From positions 397,636 through 461,635 of the forward strand of contig JAYQSH010000005.1 of assembly GCA_038146805.1 (NCBI GenBank): a stretch of DNA of 64,000 nucleotides, read 5' to 3'. This stretch comes from a bacterium (lineage in GTDB: Bacteria; Cyanobacteriota; Vampirovibrionia; LMEP-6097). A program made the position numbers and the translations under genes. Each line of letters opens with the position of its first letter. Within the stretch, counting starts at the first letter, position 1. The notes beneath the pieces were generated by a model. It was given only the letters and a program-made list of their open reading frames with translations. It was not told the DNA's origin and searched no databases. Below are positions 3,850 to 49,465 of this stretch, one piece after another.

Positions 3850-3925
3850 GGGCCCGTAGCTTAGTTGGTAGAGCGCCTCGTTTGCACCGAGGAGGTCGAG
3901 TGTTCGAATCACTTCGGGTCCACCA
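3850..3925 (+). tRNA. tRNA-Ala (anticodon UGC), CCA encoded
   Basis: Cloverleaf read by eye. Acceptor GGGCCCG/CGGGTCC with G3:U70. Anticodon stem CCTCG/CGAGG, loop TTTGCAC. T-loop TTCGAAT. Terminal ACCA at 3922-3925. Confidence 0.93.
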
Positions 3926-4064
3926 TTTCATAAAAAATTACCAAGCTACCCTAGTGGTAGCTTTTTTTTGGGCATATATAACTTAAATGCAGGCTATTCA
4001 ACAACTTATTGCATGCCTCAACTTTATTACAGAAGATAAAGAACCTGAAACTGTACAAGAGAAA
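3920..4064. repeat. left copy of 145/147-bp direct repeat (DR1) bracketing accessory segment 1
   Basis: Near-identical to 8933-9079; differences are the T-run length and one A/G at 4055 vs 9070. Begins exactly at the CCACCA end of tRNA-Ala. Contains a terminator hairpin and the first 26 codons of the 9002 gene. Confidence 0.9.
3943..3969 (+). terminator. intrinsic terminator after tRNA-Ala
   Basis: 8-bp stem AAGCTACC/GGTAGCTT, 5-nt loop, then T-run. Confidence 0.75.
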
Positions 4065-4103
4065 TTGGAAATTGCCTATGTTTTCTTAATATTTTTTTCT
4101 TGA
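3987..4103 (+). pseudogene. truncated 5' duplicate of the gene at 9002..9406
   Basis: First 26 codons (MQAIQQLIACLNFITEDKEPETVQEK) identical to ORF 9002, then divergence and a stop after 38 codons. Confidence 0.8.
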
Positions 4104-4129
4104 ATTCAAGGTCTCTTATTTTGTATAAT
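4100..4129 (+). promoter_or_regulatory. near-consensus sigma70-type promoter
   Basis: TTGAAT (4100-4105), 18-nt spacer, TATAAT (4124-4129). ATG at 4139 lies only 9 nt downstream and no Shine-Dalgarno is visible. Confidence 0.5.
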
Positions 4130-4138
4130 GTAAGTATT

Positions 4139-4954
4139 ATGGAAGTTCCACCAAGTTCATCAAGGAGTATAACTATCCCAACAAGTCGCTATCAAATGTT
4201 AAAAGAAGCAGCTAAGCAGTTTTATAGAACAAAAGGCAGAGAAGAAGCTCATGACACAGAGAGAAGCCGTAGAGACGCTCAGACCTCACTAGAGATGAAT
4301 GTCAGCGATACTACAGAACAATCTTTAGGATTTTTGCTGAGAAATGTTAACCTAATTGCTGATGAATTGAACAGAGATTCAAATGGAGGTGTCAGGAATG
4401 ATAGACTTAACACGACTTTGCAGAAAACACTTACTGGAGTCGTGCAAGAAGAAGTTCTAAGAATGAGGGACAATTTGCAGCGTCAAGTTTATAAAGCTTT
4501 GGCCAGTGAACAATCTGTAGATGCTAGGGGAGAGGTTAATAAACAAATTCTTGAAAAACATAGAAGTGGAGCGCAAATTCTTGAACTTAATGCACCAATG
4601 AGTTCTCTTGATATAGAATTACAAAACGGTTATATTTTATCAAAAACCGACAACTTTGATAGACCAGTCTCGATATTTAGAAATCTTAAACTTGGCAATA
4701 ACGAGGCTTCTGTGGATTTTGATCTTTTAAGAGGAAGTGTAAAAGTTAATATAGATACAAGCGCTCTTGGTAATACAACAATAAAAGCATCAAATGTAGA
4801 TAATCTAGCAACTTACGAAATTGTGCATAATCCTGATGGAGATGGGGCTTTTTCAGTTGAAGCAAGTGAACATGAAAGTTTATTTGATCCAGCTAAAAGT
4901 TTCTTGGCAGATACGATGGAGATGGTTGAATTAGATTTACTAAAAGGTCACTAG
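4139..4954 (+). CDS. hypothetical protein (island cargo)
   Basis: Long ORF with no recognised motif. I prefer ATG 4139 over the ORF-track TTG 4100, which is the -35 box. May be the N-terminal part of a gene continued in ORF 5053..5541 after a frameshift. Confidence 0.5.
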   Translation: MEVPPSSSRSITIPTSRYQMLKEAAKQFYRTKGREEAHDTERSRRDAQTSLEMNVSDTTEQSLGFLLRNVNLIADELNRDSNGGVRNDRLNTTLQKTLTGVVQEEVLRMRDNLQRQVYKALASEQSVDARGEVNKQILEKHRSGAQILELNAPMSSLDIELQNGYILSKTDNFDRPVSIFRNLKLGNNEASVDFDLLRGSVKVNIDTSALGNTTIKASNVDNLATYEIVHNPDGDGAFSVEASEHESLFDPAKSFLADTMEMVELDLLKGH

Positions 4955-5052
4955 GAGCTTCAAGCCTTGAAGCAGGACAAGGCAAAGCTATAAGACAGTT
5001 TATTGCCCATGTCAAAGCAGCTCTAATCGATGATTCAACTGGGCAAATTGAT

Positions 5053-5541
5053 GTGAGCAAAGCGTCGGAACTAGCAAATGATCGTCGTTTTGTTGCTGTT
5101 GCAGAAACATTAGCTTTACATGCTTCTAAAGAAGGTGAAACAGATGGTAATAATCATAGTTTAGTTATAAATGATCTTAAGTATAACAATGGAGAACCTA
5201 TGGGTAGCCTAACAATTACTTCTAAAACAGCAATACGTGCAATTGCAGCAATAGGTGATAGTGTTCCGAACAAAGTTACGATTGAGTTTACACCTGCAAG
5301 TGAAGAAACAGAAGCAAGTTTGCATGGCAAAAAAGTAGACCTCGATCTTGAAAAAGATATAAAGTTATCTAAACATGCCACGCATTACGGAATCAATGGC
5401 TCTGGAGACGATTATGTATCAACAGCGCTTCACGAGGCTCCATCTTCTGATAAATTGCAACCTGTTAGTTTCAGAAAACCTGACCCATTCAAAATCAGTG
5501 TTAATTTTGTGACTGGTGAAGTATCGATAGATGGATTCTAG
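5053..5541 (+). CDS. hypothetical protein (possibly C-terminal part of a frameshifted gene, 3' end abutting IS30 element)
   Basis: Frame is open upstream to ~4929 and overlaps the end of ORF 4139..4954. The last codons (DGF-stop) lie at the IS30-like terminus. Confidence 0.45.
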   Translation: MSKASELANDRRFVAVAETLALHASKEGETDGNNHSLVINDLKYNNGEPMGSLTITSKTAIRAIAAIGDSVPNKVTIEFTPASEETEASLHGKKVDLDLEKDIKLSKHATHYGINGSGDDYVSTALHEAPSSDKLQPVSFRKPDPFKISVNFVTGEVSIDGF

Positions 5542-6435
5542 GAGCAAATGCAACTTTGCTTGATTTCTTCCTCAAAGACCTCAAAAGGTGTTTTGTAGCC
5601 TAGTCTTTTCTTGGTCTACTATTGATTAAATCAACGTACTTTTGAAGTTCTTCATTTGTAATTTTACTCAAATCTGCTCCTTTAGGAATAAATTCTCGTA
5701 AAAGTCCAATAGTATTTTTCACGTTCCTCTTTGCCATGGGCTGTAAGGTTTGGCAAAATATACTTTCATATCAAGACTACTTTCTATTTCTTGATGCTTT
5801 GCAAACTCAGTGCCATTGTCATAAGTTATTGAAAGACAAAGTTCGTCAGGTATTTCTTCAAAAAGCTCCTCAGTTGTTTCAAGAATTGATTTGGCCTTTT
5901 TTATTTTCCATTTTGGCTGCAAGAAGCAGTCAGACCTGCGTTCTACGTTAATTAAAATCTTAGGTGATTGTTTTGGGTCTCCAAGCATAGTATCTCCTTC
6001 CCAATGTCCGGGAACGCTCCTCTCATTGATTTCTTGAGGTCTTTCATCAATCGATCTCTTATTAATAATAAATTCTGGGCTGGATCTTTTCCTTCGATAT
6101 TTTTTACCTTTTCTCCTAAGCCTGAGTTTGACTAGGTCACAGCGTTTCTTGTAGAGCCATTGATATATAGTCTCATGACAAATTACTTCACCAGTTTCTT
6201 GTCTCCATCTACCCGCAATTTGATTGGGAGACCAGTGAAGTTCAATACAATCAATGATAAACTTCTCTAAAACACTGTCACTGACTATCCTTAGATGAAT
6301 ATTAGCTTCTCTTTTTCTTTCATAAGCAAGCTGCCAAGCTTTTTCAGCAGTGAAGCTTCCATCAACTGAATTGTTACTAATACACCTACTTACAACTGAT
6401 TTATTTCTACCAATAGTAATTCCAATTTCACTAAT

Positions 6436-7507
6436 ACAGGAGTTACGCGATTGCCTGACTTAGGTGTAACTGCACAGCTTCTCTAACTATTTCCCATTTT
6501 TGTTGATACCAACTTGTACCCTCTTTGAATCTAAAGTATTCCAGCTTGATCAGAGCTAAAAAAGCACAAAATATATGATTCTTTTGCGCTTGAGCTTTTC
6601 GCATATATGACTTTTCAAGTCCACAGACTTGTTTAAGTCCTCGGTGCATGGTCTCAATAAACCAGCGAGTTTTAGCATGACCAATAAAATTATCCCAGTC
6701 ATCTAAGTCCAAATCGTTAGTTATTAAGTACCTTATCTTCCCGTCTTTGAGAGTCCTCTTGCACACTAATATTGGACCAAAGTCTTTTAGCCAAACTTTC
6801 TTAACTTGTCTTTCTGCTAACTCTAGTTCGTCAACTCTAATCCAAACTCCTTTCACCTCACTAATCTTGCGATTTGATTTTATGTCAGCAACAAAGTTCC
6901 AGCCTTTAGCTTGTATTGCTTTTAAATTTTCCTTTGACACATACCAGCTATCCATCAGTACATAACTTGGCTTGAAACCTCGTTGCTCAGCGATATCTAA
7001 CATATCTCTAAAATGATCATTCTTGGTTTTATCATCACCTTCTTTGTTGTAGATTCGGTAGTCTACTGGTAATGCTATGCCATCTAGGTCAACCCACTGA
7101 GCATTTACGATACCGATACCTTGCTTTACGGCATGATGTTTGCCACTCCATTGCCACTTGGTTAGTTCAATTTTTTTAGCATATGGTTTTTCAAGCAAAG
7201 TATCATCAAATGCTAAGTAACCTTCATTGATATTAATTTTTTCTTCTACCTGAGACCAAAGGTCTTCTGGAGAAAATTCAGAATTATTCAGCCATCTATT
7301 TACTGAATCATGAGCCATTGTTTCATCTCGACTAACTTTTTCCAACTCACTACAAGAATACTGCTTTTGTGAAGCTATTAAAAACTCAACGTACAAATCT
7401 AAGCTACATTTTTGTTGTCTCATGTAGTCTTAGACGTATTTAATTCAAAAAAGTGGCCGTAATACTTATTAAATTACTGACAAATTAGGCAATCGCGTAA
7501 CTCCTGT
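6436..7507 (-). mobile_element. intact insertion sequence nested in the IS30 pseudogene
   Basis: Perfect 21-bp terminal inverted repeats ACAGGAGTTACGCGATTGCCT (6436-6456, reverse complement at 7487-7507). Flanking 3-bp direct repeat AAT (6433-6435 / 7508-7510). Single transposase ORF. Confidence 0.88.
6443..7423 (-). CDS. DDE-type transposase (IS4/IS701-like superfamily; family not resolved)
   Basis: 326-aa ORF filling the IR-bounded element. Acidic-residue context (LAFDDT, YVLMDSWY) resembles DDE transposases. Family assignment comes from memory only. Confidence 0.65.
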   Translation of the reverse strand: MRQQKCSLDLYVEFLIASQKQYSCSELEKVSRDETMAHDSVNRWLNNSEFSPEDLWSQVEEKININEGYLAFDDTLLEKPYAKKIELTKWQWSGKHHAVKQGIGIVNAQWVDLDGIALPVDYRIYNKEGDDKTKNDHFRDMLDIAEQRGFKPSYVLMDSWYVSKENLKAIQAKGWNFVADIKSNRKISEVKGVWIRVDELELAERQVKKVWLKDFGPILVCKRTLKDGKIRYLITNDLDLDDWDNFIGHAKTRWFIETMHRGLKQVCGLEKSYMRKAQAQKNHIFCAFLALIKLEYFRFKEGTSWYQQKWEIVREAVQLHLSQAIA

Positions 7508-7681
7508 AATAGTTAATCCTTGATCTAGCAATGTCTCAATTTTAACCATCTCTTCCCAAGTCAAATGACCCTTACTTTTGTCTGACATCTTTTTCTCCTG
7601 TATTTACTTACAAGGAAGAAAACATAGATTTGTTGCATTTCGGTTTAGAAAGAATCGTTTAAGTTGTAAACAGTTTGATAG

Positions 7682-8389
7682 ATTAGTGGGTCTGCCGAGA
7701 GGCAAAGTCCGAAACTTGGAGAAAGATTTGATTTAGATAATCCAAGGCAGAGTCCATACAAGGCTGCTCGATTTAGAGATGATGGAGGCGTTGTACTGCA
7801 TAAGAGTCAAACCTTCAGGGGACGAGATATAGAGGCACCAATTGGTGCTACTTTTGCTAAAGGACAATACCGTCAACTAAGCAGTAATAGTGAATTGAAT
7901 GATTTGCAAAGACAAACAAAGATTGACTTGAACTTTAAAGGGTTACTGAATGGTGATCCAGATGTTATTGATTTTGTTGATAACACATTAATTGATTCTG
8001 ATGAAGAGAGAGGGGATTTACATTCTAGGTATCTTGCGATGCGTGACTTTGTGTTAGAGGGCGAAAATTTTCCTAGTCGAAGAGCGGACATATTATGGAG
8101 ACAACTTTGCCTAATAAAACAATGTCAATCATCTTTTAAAGATGATGCAGAGTTAACTTTTTATAGAAAAATGTTGACGGCTGATCTTGCTCTTGAATAT
8201 TCAAAAGAGAGAAACGAGAGTAGACATAGTTGGTGGCTTCCACGTGGTTCTATGTATGATGTTATCAAATGGGATGAGAGCTTTAGGGAGGAATTGCAGC
8301 ACGAGTTTTTAGATGAGGCGCATCCTTTTCACTTTAATGCTGAAGAGAGGGATTTGGTAAGATCCCAAGTTTTTACTAACAGGCTTTAA
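7682..8389 (+). CDS. hypothetical protein, apparently 5'-truncated next to the IS30 end
   Basis: Frame open from 7682, just after stops at 7676/7679, with no nearby ATG. The ORF track starts at TTG 7895. No recognised domain. Confidence 0.4.
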   Translation: MSGSAERQSPKLGERFDLDNPRQSPYKAARFRDDGGVVLHKSQTFRGRDIEAPIGATFAKGQYRQLSSNSELNDLQRQTKIDLNFKGLLNGDPDVIDFVDNTLIDSDEERGDLHSRYLAMRDFVLEGENFPSRRADILWRQLCLIKQCQSSFKDDAELTFYRKMLTADLALEYSKERNESRHSWWLPRGSMYDVIKWDESFREELQHEFLDEAHPFHFNAEERDLVRSQVFTNRL

Positions 8390-8421
8390 TTTTTTTAAAT
8401 TCTTCCAAGTTTATGGTTTTT

Positions 8422-8568
8422 ATTTCAATGAGTAAGAAAGTGATTTCTGGTTGGTAGAAGACTATTTCTGTTAAGTAGAATTCAACTTCTAGCTTGCAGA
8501 TAGCTATTTCTTGAGGTAAGAAATTTATTTCTTCTAATGATATGCCCATTTCTTCAAAGTAGATAGGC
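8422..8568 (+). repeat. seven phased 21-bp direct repeats (iteron-like array)
   Basis: Units start at 8422, 8443, 8464, 8485, 8506, 8527 and 8548. Each begins A(T/C)TTC(T/A) and has a (G/T)NAGA-like core about 11 nt later. Confidence 0.8.
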
Positions 8569-8595
8569 TTAGACCCAATTAGGAAGCCAAAATCT

Positions 8596-8938
8596 CAAGT
8601 AGAGGCTGTCGCCTCGTCGCTGCCGCTCCTCGTTGACACCCTACTGTTTTTGTCCGCGAACCAAAGAAGCAAGAGCCAAACCTAGTGCGAGGTCACAACC
8701 GCTAAGTCTAGGCTCTGCGCGAGTCGCCGGTAACTACGCTCCTGAAGGCTTATCTGATGCTAGTCTAGAATGGTGGGAGACTTTGGCTACGGCTTGGACT
8801 GAGGTGGGCGGAGCGAAGCGGAGCCTACTCAAATATGTTCTTCTAAAGTGTTGGACGAGCTTGCGAGAACAACACTTCGGTGAATTTCAGCGCGGCGCCC
8901 CCACCTCGGGTTCGGACAGTTCCGTAAATCCCCCACCA
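8596..8938 (+). ncRNA. candidate structured non-coding RNA of unassigned family
   Basis: About 56% G+C by hand count, with AT-rich flanks. No credible ORF. At least five long-range complementary segment pairs, two of them crossing. Followed by an intrinsic terminator. 5' end uncertain (possibly ~8545). Confidence 0.55.
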
Positions 8939-9079
8939 TTTCATAAAAAATTACCAAGCTACCCTAGTGGTAGCTTTTTTTTTTGGGCATATATAACTTA
9001 AATGCAGGCTATTCAACAACTTATTGCATGCCTCAACTTTATTACAGAAGATAAAGAACCTGAAACTGTGCAAGAGAAA
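8933..9079. repeat. right copy of DR1
   Basis: See 3920-4064. Begins at the CCACCA that closes the GC-rich segment. Confidence 0.9.
8956..8984 (+). terminator. intrinsic terminator (duplicate of 3943-3969)
   Basis: Same AAGCTACC/GGTAGCTT hairpin followed by a T10 run. Confidence 0.75.
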
Positions 9080-9406
9080 GTTGACAATGATCCCTATGCA
9101 ACTGTTTTATCTATTGGAGCAAATGATCTTCGTGATAACAAAAAAGCTAGAGAATTTAACCAAGCTATTAAAGAAATTCATCAAGATCCTAATTTAGTAA
9201 CAAAAAAACAATTAGAGCAAATTACAAGCTTTACTAAAAAGCTATTAGAATTAAAACAAAAAGCACTCGACATGGCTCAAGAGTGCGAGGCTCCTTGGGT
9301 TCGAGAAGAACTTGATTGGATAAAAGAGAGTTATTTGGCTCTAGCTCAAGGCTATCAAAAGATTATTGAGGAATTGGAAAAACTAGTGAAATTAAAAACA
9401 AACTAA
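9002..9406 (+). CDS. hypothetical coiled-coil protein
   Basis: 134-aa ORF with no recognised motif. Its first 26 codons are duplicated at 3987. Confidence 0.55.
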   Translation: MQAIQQLIACLNFITEDKEPETVQEKVDNDPYATVLSIGANDLRDNKKAREFNQAIKEIHQDPNLVTKKQLEQITSFTKKLLELKQKALDMAQECEAPWVREELDWIKESYLALAQGYQKIIEELEKLVKLKTN

Positions 9407-20937: not shown

Positions 20938-20985
20938 AACTTAGCATTTGGCTTAAACTTATCTTTGAAATTAGTACACTAAAGG

Positions 20986-21084
20986 GACGGTGTTTGATTC
21001 TTTTGTTAGGCGTGTCTAACCAAACCCTACTTATGCCCAAATCTAAAGACTCGAGATGCTTATTACGGGTTTGGAAGAACGCCC
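20986..21084 (+). repeat. MITE-like element, copy 1 (core 21009-21084 plus 23-bp 5' extension)
   Basis: GACGGTGTTTGATTCTTTTGTTA + GGCGTGTCTAACCAAACCC...GGGTTTGGAAGAACGCC. The core has imperfect terminal inverted repeats and a central CTCGAG. Confidence 0.85.
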
Positions 21085-21122
21085 CTAAAGACGCCACCTC
21101 CATGTGCTTGTATAATATTTTT

Positions 21123-22541
21123 ATGTCTAAATTAAAAATAGATTTACTACTCAGAGAAGAACCCGGCGCAAATGAAGAAATTGGTCTTAATGAACGTAAA
21201 GCTTCAAAGACTCAATATCATATCGACGAAAAACTCTTGCAAGTATTTTTGGGCAAAAAGAAAGATTTGAGTATCAAAAAAATCCGCGAAATACTCTCAA
21301 AAGCAGACTGGAAAAACATTTCAGAAACCGAAGTGGAAATCAATATCAACGATCTTGATGCAGAAAGTGTCGAAGCCGCCTATGAAATAATAGTGCTCAA
21401 AAGCTTTATTTTTGACAAATATAAGTCAGACGCTGGTGCTAGACAAGTACAAGTAAAAAAAGTAAGTTTTAAACCAAGCAAACCAAAAGATTTTGATTAC
21501 GAATATCGCTCTAAGGTCATAGATGCTATTAAATTTTGCAGAGATATAGTAAGCTCAAACGCGAGCACTATTAACCCCGGACAAATGCAAAAATTTGCAG
21601 AAAATTTAGCAAAAGAACACCCAGTAATCACTGTCAAAAGCATAGATGCACAAGAAGCAAAAAAACTTAACATGGAATGTTTACTCGCTGTTGGTGCAGA
21701 GAGTTTAAAGAACTCAAGTCCAAGTTTTCACCCAAGAATAGTCGAATTAAGTTTTCAAGGTGCAAAATACAAAAACTCAAAAAAAGACAAACACATAGCT
21801 TTAGTAGGTAAAGGTATCACCTATGATACTGGTGGCTTATGCTTAAAGCCAACTCAATATATGTTAGACATGAAATCTGACATGACTGGTGCAGCGACAG
21901 TGTTGTCGGTATTTAGTGCCTTGCCAAATATCGCTAAATACTTACCAGACAATATAAAAATTACTGGCATTATGGCTCTAAGCGAAAATGCATTCGGCGC
22001 TAGTAGCTATAAACCGGGGGATGTTTTGAGAGCAATGAATGGCACTACTGTTGAGGTAGTAGATACAGACGCCGAAGGTAGATTAGTTTTGGCAGACGCC
22101 TTAAGCTATATGTCTGCACTAAAAGACCAGCCAAATTATTGCATCGATCTTGCAACACTAACTGGATCTATAGTAGCAAGTCTTGGCGAAATTGCGGCTG
22201 GCGCTATGACTAATAACGATGAATTTAAAGATCAGGTAATTAATGCTTTTCGTAAAGAAGGTGAAAATTTATGGCATATGCCTTTGTTTTCTGAATACAA
22301 AACTTTATTAGATTCAAGTATTGCGGATATCAAACACTGCAACACCAGACCAGATGCACTTTGTGCGGGAATCTTTTTGAAAGAATTTGTTCACAAAAAC
22401 ATCAAATGGTTACATTTAGATATTGCTGGAGTTGGTTTTATCGAAGAAGATGGACTATGGGCTTATAAAGGTGCTACCGGATTTGGCATTAAAGGATTAT
22501 TGAAACTACTAAAAGATTTGGGCGTGCCTCCAAACCCGTAA
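21123..22541 (+). CDS. pepA: leucyl aminopeptidase (M17)
   Basis: VGKGITYDTGG and VVDTDAEGRLVLADAL motifs. Start moved to ATG 21123 because the ORF-track N-terminus (from 20994) is MITE-encoded. The last 7 codons lie in MITE copy 2. Confidence 0.85.
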   Translation: MSKLKIDLLLREEPGANEEIGLNERKASKTQYHIDEKLLQVFLGKKKDLSIKKIREILSKADWKNISETEVEININDLDAESVEAAYEIIVLKSFIFDKYKSDAGARQVQVKKVSFKPSKPKDFDYEYRSKVIDAIKFCRDIVSSNASTINPGQMQKFAENLAKEHPVITVKSIDAQEAKKLNMECLLAVGAESLKNSSPSFHPRIVELSFQGAKYKNSKKDKHIALVGKGITYDTGGLCLKPTQYMLDMKSDMTGAATVLSVFSALPNIAKYLPDNIKITGIMALSENAFGASSYKPGDVLRAMNGTTVEVVDTDAEGRLVLADALSYMSALKDQPNYCIDLATLTGSIVASLGEIAAGAMTNNDEFKDQVINAFRKEGENLWHMPLFSEYKTLLDSSIADIKHCNTRPDALCAGIFLKEFVHKNIKWLHLDIAGVGFIEEDGLWAYKGATGFGIKGLLKLLKDLGVPPNP

Positions 22542-22910
22542 TAAGTATCTCGAGTCTTTAGATTTGGGCATAAGTAGGGTTTGGTTAGACACGCCCATTA
22601 ACTGTGCCATTTTATATATTCTAAATACAAAGTTATTTAGTACTTCTTTGCTATATTTATTTAATTTCAAAAATTGTATCTGAGAAAAATCAGGAATAGC
22701 ACCAATTAAATCTTCTAAACTACTTGTTGCACCAGCTTTGAAAGCAAAAGGTTTTAAAGGATTAATAGAGCGAGACAATAATTTCAAGCTTGCTCTTTTT
22801 TGATCATTAGCAGTTTTTTTTCTTAGCGTAAAATTCATCATCAGCCTGCAACAAGCTTCTGACAAAAGCATATTCAGGATAAAAATCGCATATTTTTGAT
22901 CAATTCTCAT
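22509..22910 (-). CDS. doubtful hypothetical protein
   Basis: 133-aa ORF whose C-terminal ~30 residues (MGVSNQTLLMPKSKDSRYLLRVW..) are MITE sequence. No motif. Confidence 0.25.
   Translation of the reverse strand: MRIDQKYAIFILNMLLSEACCRLMMNFTLRKKTANDQKRASLKLLSRSINPLKPFAFKAGATSSLEDLIGAIPDFSQIQFLKLNKYSKEVLNNFVFRIYKMAQLMGVSNQTLLMPKSKDSRYLLRVWRHAQIF
22520..22595 (-). repeat. MITE-like element, copy 2 (core only, inverted)
   Basis: Reverse complement of the 76-bp core. Overlaps the pepA stop codon. Confidence 0.85.
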
Positions 22911-37123: not shown

Positions 37124-37160
37124 GAGACAAAATGAACACGGTCCGAAGTGTCTTAGCTAA
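37124..37160 (-). repeat. single 37-bp terminator-like hairpin unit
   Basis: GAGACAAAATGAACACGGTCCGAAGTGTCTTAGCTAA. Lies downstream of the minus-strand ORF 37328..37987. Confidence 0.8.
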
Positions 37161-37261
37161 GCGACGGTGTTTGATTCTTTTGTTAGGCGTGTCTAACCAA
37201 ACCCTACTTATGCCCAAATCTAAAGACTCGAGATACTTATTACGGGTTTGGAAGCACGCCC
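37157..37261 (+). repeat. MITE-like element, copy 3 (full, with 5' extension)
   Basis: CTAAGCGACGGTGTTTGATTCTTTTGTTAGGCGTGTCTAACC...GGAAGCACGCCC, near-identical to 49151-49255. Confidence 0.88.
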
Positions 37262-37327
37262 TTTAATCAGGCTTGAATCAAAAGACTGCGTCAATTTTTT
37301 AGTAGATCCTTAAAAAAGCAAACCGTA

Positions 37328-37987: not shown

Positions 37988-38027
37988 AGCAAGGTTTTCA
38001 TTATCTTGACTTGCGCATATTGATGGA

Positions 38028-39069
38028 TTCCAATATCAATTGCAACTCTGCTTGATTTGAGCCTGAAATACCTCTAAAGGTGTTTTCCATTTTAGCCTTT
38101 TTCTGGGTCTAGTGTTTAAAAGATGAATATAGTGCTGTAGATCTTCCTCTGAAAGGGTATTTAGATCAGTGCCTTTTGGAATGAATTGCCTTAAAAGTCC
38201 TATGAGATTCTCAATACTTCCTTTTTGCCAAGGGCTGTATGGTTTAGCAAAATACACCGTCATTTTTGTCTTTTCTTCAATTTCTTTATGCTTTGCAAAC
38301 TCTGTTCCGTTATCGTAAGTAACTGAAATCCTAAGTTCTTCTGGTATCTCTTTAAAATATTCTTCAGTAGCTTTTAAAACTGATTCAGCTTTTTTGTTTG
38401 GTAACTTTTTAGCTAAGACAAGACCACTTTTTCTTTCTAGATTAAGAACAATACATTCTTTTTTACCATGAGCACCTATGATAGTGTCGCCTTCCCAGTG
38501 ACCAAATTCAAGCCTCTCATTGGCTTCTATCGGTCTTTCATCAATTGATCTTTTATCAACAATGAATTCTGGGGTGGTCCTTTTCTTACGATATTTTTTA
38601 CCTTTTCTTCTCAAGTAAATTTTTATTAAATCAGGTCTTTTGGTTTGTAGCCATGTATATATGGTTTGATGAGATAAAGCTTCGTTGCACTCTTCAGTCC
38701 ATATCCCAGCAATTTGCTCTGGAGAATGGTAAGAAGTAATTTTTTCAATAACGAAGTTTTCAAGTAAGCTTTCATCAATAATTCTAGGATGATGGTTTGC
38801 AGTTCTTTTTCTTTCATGCATTAACTGCCAAGCTTCTTCAGCAACAAAATCACCATCAACAGAGTTATTGTTTACGCATCTGTAGACAACTGATTTATTT
38901 CTTCCTATGACAACAGCTATTTCTGCTGGATTAAGACCTTGATTTAGCAATGTCTCAATTCTAACTACTTCTTCCCAGGTCAAGTGACCCTTATATTTAA
39001 ATGACATATCAGCCTCCTGTATTTACTACATTTCGGCTAAATCCTTAAAAGTTGCATTTCGGTTTGGAA
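38028..39069 (-). mobile_element. intact IS30-family insertion sequence
   Basis: Imperfect ~40-bp terminal inverted repeats: TTCCAATATCAATTGCAACTCTGCTTGATTTGAGCC at the left, reverse complement of TTCCAAACCGAAATGCAACTTTTAAGGATTTAGCC at the right. Single transposase ORF. Exact ends +/- a few bp. Confidence 0.85.
38036..39007 (-). CDS. IS30-family transposase
   Basis: 323 aa. N-terminal HTH (LTWEEVVRIETLLNQGLNPAEIA). DDE core (HWEGDT ... YDNGTEF ... YSPWQKGSIEN). Confidence 0.9.
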   Translation of the reverse strand: MSFKYKGHLTWEEVVRIETLLNQGLNPAEIAVVIGRNKSVVYRCVNNNSVDGDFVAEEAWQLMHERKRTANHHPRIIDESLLENFVIEKITSYHSPEQIAGIWTEECNEALSHQTIYTWLQTKRPDLIKIYLRRKGKKYRKKRTTPEFIVDKRSIDERPIEANERLEFGHWEGDTIIGAHGKKECIVLNLERKSGLVLAKKLPNKKAESVLKATEEYFKEIPEELRISVTYDNGTEFAKHKEIEEKTKMTVYFAKPYSPWQKGSIENLIGLLRQFIPKGTDLNTLSEEDLQHYIHLLNTRPRKRLKWKTPLEVFQAQIKQSCN

Positions 39070-45297: not shown

Positions 45298-47174
45298 ATT
45301 TCTTGAGGCTTTTATTTTTAACTTTTACAATAAGTTGGTTCTTAATACCAGACAAATGTTTTGCCACAAGATTTAAAACTTATCAAGGCTTAGTTGAAAT
45401 ACTTTTTATTGATTCACATGATAAACCACAAAAAATTTATAAATTAATTTTAGAAGATGGTTCAAAAATAATTTTAAAAACAAAAAAAGATCCTAATTTT
45501 GCTCCTCTTGAAGCAGTAACAATTCAAGGTGCAATTAAAAACAACAAACTATACGCAAAAGAAATTATACGCAAAAAAGATAGATCTTTAATGAATTCAA
45601 ATTCCTATCGCAGTGGTAATAGAAAGCTATTAGTTGTACAGATTACAGACGCTGGATTTTCAGAAAGTTTTATTCCATATACAAGTAGCGAGATTAATGA
45701 CTTTTATTTTAGTGACTCAATATCAGTCAAAGACTATATTGCAGAAAATTCTGATACTCGGTTAAATATTACTGGACTTACTATAGACACACTCGCTGTA
45801 CCAAATCTATGTCAAAATGATCAACTTTTTGATAGGTCAATTGAAACTACTGTACTTGCCACCGTAGACACTCTTATAGATGACTTAGATAGCTATAGCT
45901 ATGCACATATCATAGTTCCAGACAAAGATGAATGTTTAGCAAATGCTGCAGGCATTGGTACAGTAGGAAATACCATATATAGTTCTGCAAAACATGGAAA
46001 TATTTTTCTTGGCGTGAGCTTTATTAGAGCTTACAATCAAAGTAGCTATGAATATACTTTCTTAAGCACAATATTACATGAGTTAGGACATAATATTGGC
46101 TTAGGACATGCAAATGCTAATTCTTGTGGTGTAGATGTCTTTCAAAGCAAAGCTTGCACCGGAATTGAATACGGTGATGGTCATAGTATTATGGGAACAG
46201 CACCTACGCTTGCTCATTTTAATGGCATACAAAAACAAGACCTCGGCTGGTTAAACAGCAATCAGATTTTAACAGTGGATTCTGATACAAGCCTAGAAAA
46301 TATCAGCTTAATTCCAATGGCAAGTAGCGCGGCTGGCTATAAAATGATTCGCATCAAAAGAAATGATGGACTATATTACAGCATAGAATATAGACAAGCA
46401 CATGGTTATGATGATGTATTAGAAAGAAGTTTTTTAAACAAAAACTTTTCTGGGTTTTTAGTTTATGTAGATGAAGAAAATATTGGTAATAGACCAGTGC
46501 TTATTGATAGCGAGTTTGAAGACTTTAGAGCAAGCTCAGAATATATCTCTGGGTCTTATTCATATTATTCAAACTACGATATGACAAGCTCAATGAATGA
46601 AAGAGCTTTATTTGCTGTTGGGGAAGATTTTGATGATAATGTAAACAAAATATTAGTACAAACAACAGAACTTACGACTGATGCCGCAACTATTAATATC
46701 AAAAAAGGTGATTGCTTTTATAGTGACAACTCAGAGGGTGATGAAAACGATAATTCAGACGAGGAAGATTTTACAAGCAATTTTTTAGATTTCAAAGATT
46801 TAGCTTCAGAAATCTATCTTAAATACAAAAGACCCAGCAAAATTCTTTTGGATATTTCAGCAAATTTGCAAGAAGCTCAAAATGGTATGAAATTTAAAAT
46901 CACGAAATCAGCAAATTTTAAAAATGTTACCAAGATAAAGAAAAACTCTTTTCATTATCAGCGAGATGGCAGAGTAAAAATTTTAGTGGCACCAGAACGA
47001 AAACTTATTAAACAAGGTTATGTTGCTGACGAAAATGGAGAATACACACTAGAAGTTTTGATAAAACAAAAATCAAAAAGACCTAGTTTTACTCCGAGAG
47101 TTTTGGAATTTAAAGTCAAATCTAAAGACTCGAGATACTTATTACTGGTTTGGAAGCACGCCCATAATTTATAA
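45294..47174 (+). CDS. secreted zinc metalloprotease (HEXXHXXGXXH metzincin-type motif)
   Basis: Signal peptide (LLFLTFTISWFLIPDKCFA). HELGHNIGLGHAN motif. The last ~19 codons (KSKDSRYLLLVWKHAHNL) are MITE-derived. Confidence 0.72.
   Translation: MNFLRLLFLTFTISWFLIPDKCFATRFKTYQGLVEILFIDSHDKPQKIYKLILEDGSKIILKTKKDPNFAPLEAVTIQGAIKNNKLYAKEIIRKKDRSLMNSNSYRSGNRKLLVVQITDAGFSESFIPYTSSEINDFYFSDSISVKDYIAENSDTRLNITGLTIDTLAVPNLCQNDQLFDRSIETTVLATVDTLIDDLDSYSYAHIIVPDKDECLANAAGIGTVGNTIYSSAKHGNIFLGVSFIRAYNQSSYEYTFLSTILHELGHNIGLGHANANSCGVDVFQSKACTGIEYGDGHSIMGTAPTLAHFNGIQKQDLGWLNSNQILTVDSDTSLENISLIPMASSAAGYKMIRIKRNDGLYYSIEYRQAHGYDDVLERSFLNKNFSGFLVYVDEENIGNRPVLIDSEFEDFRASSEYISGSYSYYSNYDMTSSMNERALFAVGEDFDDNVNKILVQTTELTTDAATINIKKGDCFYSDNSEGDENDNSDEEDFTSNFLDFKDLASEIYLKYKRPSKILLDISANLQEAQNGMKFKITKSANFKNVTKIKKNSFHYQRDGRVKILVAPERKLIKQGYVADENGEYTLEVLIKQKSKRPSFTPRVLEFKVKSKDSRYLLLVWKHAHNL
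47117..47163 (+). repeat. MITE-like element, copy 4 (right half only)
   Basis: CAAATCTAAAGACTCGAGATACTTATTACTGGTTTGGAAGCACGCCC. Confidence 0.8.
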
Positions 47175-47176
47175 AG

Positions 47177-47261
47177 TGGTGGGCTTGTAGAGAGTCGAAC
47201 TCTAACGCCTTACGGCACATGATCCTAAGTCAAGCGCGTCTACCAATTCCGCCACAAGCCC
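47177..47261 (-). tRNA. tRNA-Leu (anticodon UAG), CCA encoded
   Basis: Reverse strand reads GGGCTTGTGGCGGAATTGGTAGACGC...CTTAGGA loop (anticodon TAG). Long variable arm. T-arm TAGAG-TTCGACT-CTCTA. Acceptor CAAGCCC-ACCA. One T:T mismatch in the anticodon stem. Confidence 0.88.
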
Positions 47262-48698: not shown

Positions 48699-48883
48699 AT
48701 TATTAGAACACTTCGGACCGTGTTCATTTTGTCTCATTATTAGGACACTTCGGACCGTGTTCATTTTGTCTCATTATTAGAACACTTCGGACCGTGTTCT
48801 TTTTGTCTCATTATTAGAACACTTCGGACCGTGTTCTTTTTGTCTCATTATTAGAACACTTCGGACCGTGTTGATTTTGTCTC
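48699..48883 (+). repeat. five tandem 37-bp terminator-like hairpin units
   Basis: Unit ATTATTAGAACACTTCGGACCGTGTTC(A/T)TTTTGTCTC. Unit boundaries at 48699, 48736, 48773, 48810 and 48847. No spacers. Confidence 0.92.
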
Positions 48884-49150
48884 ATGAATCAATAAATTAA
48901 CCTAGCTACTGTTAACAAATCCCAATAACTGCCCTACTCTACTGCCTCAAAGTCATGATTTACAAGCAGTAAACTGAAGCCTTTTTGGGGCGCTAGAAGT
49001 CCTTGTTCTCAAAATTTGTTAATGGGACTGATTCCAAACCCCATTTTGAATTTTAAAATACAGTGAAATGTTAAAATCACTAGCAAATGGGGTCAGAAAT
49101 CAGTCCCACAAACGACCTTACGCTTAGCTTGTTTCACTGCGTAAAACTCA

Positions 49151-49255
49151 CTAAGCGACGGTGTTTGATTCTTTTGTTAGGCGTGTCTAACCAAACCCTA
49201 CTTATGCCCAAATCTAAAGACTCGAGATACTTATTACGGGTTTGGAAGCACGCCC
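49151..49255 (+). repeat. MITE-like element, copy 5 (full, with 5' extension)
   Basis: Near-identical to 37157-37261. Accounts for ORF-track entry 49087..49269. Confidence 0.88.
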
Positions 49256-49465
49256 TTAATAGCAGCTAATAATGTTTTTTTTTAGTATCCACTGAAAAAT
49301 GCTAGTTCATCGATTTCTCAACCCTGATCCAAGAGTAGAACTTAGCTCAGGGACTGAATCCTTAATATTTTTGTTAAGCGGATAGCACCTCAAAACTGCG
49401 TTTTTCAGCGAATCCATAAAATTAAAAATGCTTTGAAGCAAGCTCTTGACCTTGAGGGCTAATTC

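Follow-up and report, generated by a model that had tools for sequence, protein, structure and literature searches.

Does a GC-rich segment of some 340 nt that lies in AT-rich DNA and is followed by CCACCA and a terminator represent the gene of a structured RNA, or is this appearance lent to it by its surroundings? The question is raised by positions 8596–8932 of the window—by which we mean the whole stretch of 64,000 nt of DNA that was analysed here. A sequence-only reading of this window had taken the segment for a helix-rich RNA that belongs to no known class, resembles a tRNA at its 3′ end and is carried on accessory DNA. The answer given here is that the locus adds one more example to a known kind, the small islands linked to a tRNA gene; it carries orphan cargo, which includes an unclassified GC-rich segment.

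A GC-rich, non-coding block

8596–8932, listed as plus strand: GC-rich non-coding block, about 56% G+C, with no protein family, relatives or Rfam family

The strand is listed as plus on account of the sole downstream terminator, which reads on plus. Over positions 8601–8938, 189 of the 338 nt are G or C (55.9%), compared with a mean of 33.5% for the 64-kb window, and the earlier description of about 340 GC-rich nucleotides amid AT-rich flanks is hereby confirmed. The block is the only stretch within the 64 kb that exceeds 48% G+C over 300 nt. Its right edge coincides with the junction at 8932|8933, where a repeat copy (R2) begins; the block's own share of this ending is just the three C's ahead of CCACCA.

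A protein-coding gene of 122–132 codons (8603/8633–9001) would be suggested by the fact that this frame is the only one open across the block. However, the frame reads through the terminator hairpin, and its G+C by codon position is abnormal—0.56/0.60/0.47 versus about 0.50/0.30/0.23 in the real genes of the window. It has no match in Pfam, PHROGs, NCBIfam or PADLOC, and 1.84 billion representative proteins returned only P0013, a chance match inflated by repeats, with 27–40% identity to a 30-residue unit that recurs about eight times. The exact product is missing from a collection of 15 billion proteins, and gene callers did not call the frame on the contigs L001–L003, which carry the block as well. 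The sequence-only reading was thus right to see no protein-like character in this frame, and we regard a protein gene as very improbable. The GC-rich stretch is real and it is non-coding.

A strain-specific insertion at a tRNA-Ala hot spot

3850–3925, plus strand: intact tRNA-Ala(UGC), the anchor of the hot spot (ARAGORN and Rfam scans)
3920–4064, plus strand: repeat R1, made up of the final CCACCA of tRNA-Ala (6 nt), the tRNA terminator and the truncated start of a 134-aa gene
4065–8932, no strand assigned: strain-specific inserted DNA, missing from near-identical strains; repeat period 5013 bp
8933–9079, plus strand: repeat R2, which comprises CCACCA, a terminator hairpin followed by T10 and codons 1–27 of the 134-aa gene
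8956–8984, plus strand: intrinsic-terminator hairpin and T-run in R2, the copied tRNA-Ala terminator
9002–9406, plus strand: downstream orphan gene of 134 aa, whose first 27 codons lie within the repeat

Self-comparison of the window shows that the sequence from 8933 on repeats the sequence from 3920 on for about 145 nt. The repeat begins precisely at the terminal CCACCA of tRNA-Ala, spans its terminator and reaches codon 27 of the next gene. In R1, the terminator hairpin at 3943–3963 is followed by T8; this run (T8 versus T10) and one substitution at 4055 are the differences between the two copies. CCACCA and the terminator behind the block are the first 52 nt of this repeat. Hence, they are not the block's own but belong to R2, a copy of the tRNA-Ala trailer. 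The sequence-only reading had placed both elements correctly—the CCACCA end and the terminator at 8956–8984 are there—and erred in taking them for the 3′ end of the RNA itself. The R2 terminator scores as a terminator on the minus strand too. A search of the plus strand ahead of the block gave no sigma-70-like promoter.

Same-species contigs, 98–99.5% identical, were retrieved from public assemblies via the neighbouring spermidine synthase. In three of them (L004, L005 and L012), whose left flank is 99.5% identical to the window, the TPR gene is followed by tRNA-Ala, one repeat copy, the 134-aa gene, DsbA and SpeE, with nothing extra between. It follows that the 5.0 kb which separate the repeats in the window are a strain-specific insertion, and these empty sites show directly what had been proposed for the block, namely that it sits on an accessory segment. 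The insertion is not an assembly artefact, since independent contigs cross both junctions: the right junction is present together with the block on JGI contigs, namely on L001–L003 (99.9–100% match to the window) and on L018 and L019, in which the adjoining ORF is likewise the same, and the left junction is spanned by the Logan contig L020, which has the R1-specific base.

The site holds more than these two states. Other genes replace the 134-aa gene in L006, L008, L010 and L011, and in L141–L150 a repeat element of about 246 nt splits this gene and a different gene follows. The site 3′ of tRNA-Ala(UGC) is hence a hypervariable hot spot—a clean example of such a site, from an AT-rich bacterium that has not been cultured; public assemblies show four different states or more.

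Contents of the insertion

4100–5541, plus strand: orphan gene of 473 aa, split in the window into 284 + 162 aa
5527–6414 plus 7518–7650: decayed IS30-like copy, interrupted by the nested IS4-like element
6427–7516, minus strand: IS4-like element with a DDE_Tnp_1 transposase at 6443–7423 and 30-nt terminal inverted repeats
7685–8389, plus strand: orphan gene for a protein of 234 aa, or of 164 aa if the start is the TTG at 7895; lies directly upstream of the 21-bp array
8422–8610, no strand assigned: phased array in an AT-rich spacer, with seven 21-bp units (8422–8548) and a similar unit at 8590

Apart from insertion sequences, the cargo consists of orphans. The 473-aa gene is split in the window because an A-run near 4941 differs by 1 nt. 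For the 234-, 284- and 162-aa proteins, no relatives outside the same population were found and none in viral contigs; among 5.8 billion proteins, the sole match of the 234-aa protein was itself, and its AlphaFold model (pLDDT 38) is unusable. The IS4-like transposase shows just 39–41% identity to proteins of Piscirickettsia, Acinetobacter and cyanobacterial plasmids. Searches of the insertion with Pfam, PHROGs, NCBIfam and PADLOC gave no recognisable integrase, Rep, Par or defence protein.

The 21-bp array, which runs into the 5′ edge of the GC-rich block, has the consensus ATTTCT-N5-GTAGAw, and its units contain the palindrome TTCT-N7-AGAA. None of 100 shuffles produced the 4-unit pattern. 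By its sequence, the array looks like a set of putative protein-binding sites. Scanning metagenomes with a 4-unit ATTTCT pattern yielded only unrelated 21-nt or 7-nt tandem repeats, none of them near a similar block.

Comparison with known RNAs and search for relatives

In a scan of the whole window with Rfam 15 at the gathering threshold, the block matches no family, and permissive scans (E of 10 or less) of segments of 801 nt and 361 nt matched none either; the families covered include RNase P, 6S, SRP, group I/II introns, ROOL, GOLLD, OLE, HEARO, raiA and riboswitches. The top score inside the block is that of mir-674, with 14.7 bits where 93 are required; all matches in the 801-nt scan are driven by the terminator and stay below half of the gathering score. 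The proposal that the block belongs to no known RNA class has thus withstood the scan of the Rfam models.

For a tRNA-like RNA in particular—a divergent or truncated tmRNA, an intron-containing tRNA-Ala, or a displaced 3′ part on an island that targets ssrA—speak the length of about 340 nt, the GC-richness and the ...CCACCA end. Moreover, tRNA-Ala and tmRNA genes are known integration targets. However, ARAGORN finds no tmRNA, standard or permuted, on either strand and only two tRNAs in the window, and the Rfam models for tmRNA (including the alpha, beta and cyano permuted forms and mt-tmRNA), tRNA and group I/II introns give no match even at E of 10 or less. The 3′ strand reads AUCCCCC and is without U70; neither a complementary 5′ strand of the GGGGGAU type nor a G3:U70 pair nor an arm with a 7-nt T-loop is present in the block. 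The sole hairpin ahead of AUCCCCC is CGGA-CAGU-UCCG, with 4 bp and a 4-nt loop, and in the predicted fold the CCA sits paired within the outer stem instead of being free. A tag reading frame that ends in a stop is missing from the six-frame translation. In these points, ARAGORN, Rfam and reading of the sequence agree with the earlier remark that acceptor strand, T-arm and tag frame are lacking.

The similarity to tRNA-Ala itself has to be assessed differently from how it was first described. The sequence-only reading had pointed to a 9/10 match between the block and the 3′ half of tRNA-Ala, yet local alignment places this at chance level (p about 0.2–0.3), and tRNA-Leu reaches an equal score. 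An origin from tRNA-Ala or from an intron-containing tRNA was rejected on these scores. Furthermore, CCACCA is part of the repeat, and sister strains live without the element, so that the block cannot be an essential ssrA gene. The tRNA-like reading is effectively refuted.

Relatives of the block are likewise missing from the collections that were searched. Its DNA has no match among plasmids, phages and E. coli genomes, and its translation, searched with degenerate patterns and tblastn, none in GTDB representative genomes, JGI metagenomes or IMG/VR viral contigs. The 17-mer GGGTTCGGACAGTTCCG from the block has one match in a viral contig, which is a chance match in a contig of 61% G+C. Copies of the block are known only from the same population, on contigs 99.9–100% identical to the window.

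Folding of the block

8765–8942, no strand assigned: imperfect long hairpin or inverted repeat, from folding z-scores and stem search

The five pairings of the sequence-only reading are all present where it had placed them, the two crossing ones with the bulges of 1–2 nt that it had described. Its characterisation of the block as helix-rich is not supported: compared with dinucleotide shuffles, the folding energy of 8596–8940 shows no surplus overall, with z = +0.9 (plus strand) and 0.0 (minus strand). Folding with the flanks and the terminator yields z = +0.1 (plus) and −0.55 (minus). The two halves differ. The 5′ half (8596–8768) is less stable than its shuffles (z = +1.5), and the 3′ half (8765–8942, 178 nt) reaches z = −2.2 on plus and −2.8 on minus. 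Three perfect stems of at least 8 bp are found in the block versus 0.76 expected, a number that 4% of the shuffles reach. The thermodynamic case for a structured RNA is weak.

The 3′ half forms a modest, imperfect long hairpin, whose outer arms 8769–8783 and 8926–8940 are complementary at 13 of 15 positions and enclose the nested stems 8801–8808/8900–8907 and 8846–8853/8870–8877. The symmetry of its signal on the two strands is as compatible with an inverted repeat in DNA as with an RNA. A MITE at 8769–8940 was considered and ruled out; the right arm is native tRNA-trailer sequence, which is found in the empty sites too.

In the closing stem of this 172-nt hairpin, the internal sequence AATGGTGGG (8769–8777) pairs with the junction sequence CCCACCATT. 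The 8-mer AATGGTGG occurs only three times in the 64 kb, twice as part of the junction copies and a third time in inverted orientation within the block. This arrangement might be read as an RNA carried by the element, whose 3′ hairpin with AAUGGUGGG (8769–8777) would be complementary to the attachment junction, the tRNA-Ala 3′ end CCACCAUU. Such an RNA might act as a site guide—by analogy with bridge or omega RNAs, though no protein that would accompany it is recognisable—or it might imitate or sequester the 3′ end of the tRNA; its partners would be the 21-bp array and the orphan protein of 234 aa. The threefold occurrence of the 8-mer speaks for this idea. Against it, the observation was made post hoc, the pairing comprises only 9 bp and a recombinase is absent. 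We consider it very improbable. Should the block be an RNA and the junction pairing be functional as well, this would bear on RNA-guided site choice by mobile elements; the current evidence does not justify expecting so.

Is the block a structured RNA gene in a more general sense—a novel noncoding RNA of the island, transcribed on the plus strand and ending at the R2 terminator, as had first been proposed? The sharp rise in G+C, from 33.5% to 56%, the non-coding nature of the block and the terminator downstream of it are what such a gene would show. In the same direction point the 3′ domain, which is somewhat more stable than shuffles, the excess of nested stems of at least 8 bp and the persistence of high G+C within an AT-rich, decayed island. 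These points are countered by the folding energy of the block as a whole and of its 5′ half, and by the hairpin signal on the minus strand, which is at least equal to that on plus, as an inverted repeat in DNA would give. There is also no promoter-like site upstream, it is the tRNA trailer that supplied CCACCA and the terminator, and no relatives exist in the collections searched. The block is dispensable, since near-identical strains lack it. GC-rich intergenic regions in AT-rich genomes are the selection signature of pipelines for noncoding RNA discovery, and in the published pipeline most of the unknown regions picked in this way end as ORFs or as 'unnamed', low-ranking or mobile/repeat candidates (PMC11109978). 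Taken together, we find a structured RNA gene rather unlikely. If the block were a transcribed and conserved RNA after all, it would represent a new class of island-borne noncoding RNA.

No result obtained here demonstrates an RNA that is conserved and folds on its own in the manner of tmRNA, RNase P, ROOL or GOLLD. The eye-catching traits of the block—CCACCA end, terminator, tRNA resemblance and helices—are either borrowed from the tRNA-Ala trailer or within chance.

Origin and possible role of the block

What, then, is the block? It could be a scrap of foreign DNA that is richer in G+C and has no function, either part of a gene or filler, and that was caught at the junction too recently to have drifted toward AT. 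It abuts the junction exactly at 8932|8933, is a complete orphan in sequence and has one frame open across its entire length, like a fragment of a gene; the overall lack of a structure signal and the decay of the surrounding island are also in line with a scrap. However, the search of the 1.84 billion representative proteins gave no more than a chance match inflated by repeats, and the order GC2 > GC1 > GC3 is the reverse of that usual in coding DNA of about 56% G+C. A recent arrival of the block alone would require a separate event, because the remaining island is AT-rich and holds an old IS copy. The phased array at the 5′ edge and the inverted junction 8-mer suggest organisation and not random filler. 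We hold this explanation to be possible, yet on the whole doubtful.

The explanation that we favour, tentatively and with somewhat less than even confidence, is that the block constitutes the orphan non-coding right end—cargo or cis region—of a decaying integrated element at the tRNA-Ala hot spot. A circular element that carried its own copy of the tRNA-Ala end and trailer would have integrated by a single crossover, either of the Campbell type or by an integrase. This would result in the present layout of intact tRNA, repeat, cargo, repeat and intact downstream gene. After entry the element would have decayed, leaving it with no integrase, an IS nested within an IS and one frameshifted gene. 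The block and the operator-like 21-bp array would then most likely be the cis-acting or regulatory region of the element beside its attachment junction; that such a region and not random DNA is at hand is suggested by the array together with the 172-nt hairpin, which closes on the junction. If the block is transcribed on plus, the transcript would be about 390 nt long and end at the borrowed tRNA terminator.

The sequence markers within the repeats might retain a trace of this process. The T-run and the base after it that varies are T8 and A4055 in R1, T10 and G in R2, and T8 and G in the empty sites. Each repeat hence shares one marker state with the empty sites, which would fit a reciprocal crossover within the repeat. 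This argument is weak, since immediately to the right of R2 the 134-aa gene is present as a diverged allele: its codons 31–130 differ by 5.7% from those of the empty-site strains (17 differences over 300 nt, 9094–9391), while divergence from these strains amounts to about 0.5–1% in the flanks and to almost nil in R2. For this gene, no relatives were found in GTDB representative genomes. Equally possible is that a ready-made island was imported from another lineage by homologous recombination and that gene conversion between the repeats followed.

Against the favoured explanation speaks that no integrase, Rep or partition protein is recognisable in the insertion, so that the putative label 'integrated element' is drawn from the architecture of the locus, and also that the repeat includes a mere 6 nt of the tRNA. 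A further point against it is the composition of the block: that 56% G+C was kept in an AT-rich and evidently old island argues for selection on the sequence, as a functional RNA would predict too. To our knowledge, there is no established function for GC-rich DNA that adjoins an attachment site.

Comparison with known systems

Among the candidates of the GC-rich intergenic region pipeline, the block resembles the 'unnamed' or low-ranking ones, being a long GC-rich intergenic region of an AT-rich genome that is neither an ORF nor a known RNA (PMC11109978). Named or high-ranking candidates, on the contrary, have many representatives and a covarying consensus (PMC11109978), whereas the block is one unique sequence and bears no global stability signal. 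Its mobile context is a category that this pipeline sets aside as mobile/repeat (PMC11109978).

With tmRNA (ssrA), the block has in common its size of about 340 nt, a G+C content above that of the genome, the CCACCA that follows and the nearby integration hot spot. In contrast to tmRNA, it has no acceptor 5′ strand, G3:U70 pair, T-arm or tag frame, is detected neither by ARAGORN nor by Rfam and is dispensable, and the CCACCA behind it comes from the duplicated tRNA-Ala trailer. The value of the locus is mainly corrective in this respect: a duplicated tRNA trailer at an island boundary can mimic a tmRNA-like ending of CCACCA and terminator. Hence, candidates that are picked by their G+C beside tRNA genes need a check for empty sites before they are labelled as RNA genes.

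The six to eight phased 21-bp units with their conserved 6-nt core and the palindrome TTCT-N7-AGAA, located directly downstream of a small orphan gene, are reminiscent of the iteron-like or centromere-like arrays in the control regions of plasmids and phages. Unlike in these regions, no Rep, Par or other DNA-binding family is recognisable, and the 337-bp GC-rich block has no counterpart that could be named.

The system that comes closest are the islets and integrative elements at tRNA 3′ ends. Classical elements that target tRNA genes copy a larger part of the gene, whereas the repeat described here, at about 145 nt, includes just the last 6 nt of the tRNA. The island is just 5 kb long and carries no recognisable integrase or excisionase; only IS-type DDE/rve transposase remnants are found in it. 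In its architecture, the locus agrees with the tRNA-associated integrative islands: the insertion starts at the 3′ end of a tRNA gene that stays intact, is flanked by direct repeats that include the tRNA end, and is absent from close relatives, which hold a single att-like copy. Orphan genes and insertion sequences as content and a cargo that varies among strains complete this likeness.

States of the tRNA-Ala hot spot

The hot spot between tRNA-Ala and the DsbA/SpeE genes is found in at least four states among public assemblies: empty, occupied by the 5-kb island, carrying other small orphan genes instead of the 134-aa gene, or bearing a long minus-strand gene instead of DsbA. Variant contents were located in contigs L006, L008, L010, and L011 (upstream of DsbA) as well as in contigs L141–L150 (downstream of the 134-aa gene).

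R2, the right-hand direct repeat, is nearly identical to its counterpart in the empty-site strains, and the flanks differ by 0.5–1%; between 9094 and 9391, within the 134-aa gene, divergence from these strains amounts to 5.7%, beginning just past the end of R2. This pattern suggests gene conversion between the repeats, an allele co-imported with the island, or diversifying selection.

In L141–L150, the 134-aa gene is broken into ORFs of 76 and 74 aa by a copy of a MITE-like repeat family of ~246 nt—a family that is also present in several copies within the window, one of which adjoins tRNA-Leu (47177-47261). The region around 48700-48900 of the window contains repeats of 37-nt period.

Copies of the MITE-like family
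49013-49258, window
37157-37263, window
20977-21087, window
22503-22595, window
47117-47169, window
L141:5301-5546, outside the window

Elements of the island

Island features
6427-7516, IS4-like element bounded by 30-nt terminal inverted repeats
8422-8610, array of phased 21-bp units, seven in register (8422-8548) and another resembling them at 8590

In Logan contig L020, the window's two ORFs of 284 aa and 162 aa (4100-5541) are joined in one orphan gene of 473 aa. An A-run near 4941 is one A shorter in the window than in L020, which could mean that the gene is a pseudogene or phase-variable, or that there is a sequencing error. The insertion's left edge carries a strong match to a sigma-70-like promoter (4100-4129; TTGAAT-18-TATAAT, 10/12), which coincides with the TTG at 4100 annotated as the start codon of the 473-aa gene; a possible internal ATG start lies downstream of this match, near 4139.

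Further to the right, a decayed IS30-like copy (5527-7650) holds the IS4-like element nested inside; a second IS30-like copy at 38019-39069 shares 68–76% identity with it.

The 8-mer AATGGTGG occurs just three times within the 64-kb window: twice at the repeat junctions (3920-3927 and 8933-8940), there reading CCACCATT, and once inverted at 8769-8776 within the GC block, where it closes a 172-nt hairpin.

The 21-bp array follows the 234-aa orphan gene and precedes the GC block. It imposes the xEIxFxx heptad of a 57-aa minus-strand ORF (8376-8549), which is probably spurious. Its units conserve an ATTTCT core and carry TTCT-N7-AGAA palindromes; by its sequence, the array looks like iterons or operators.
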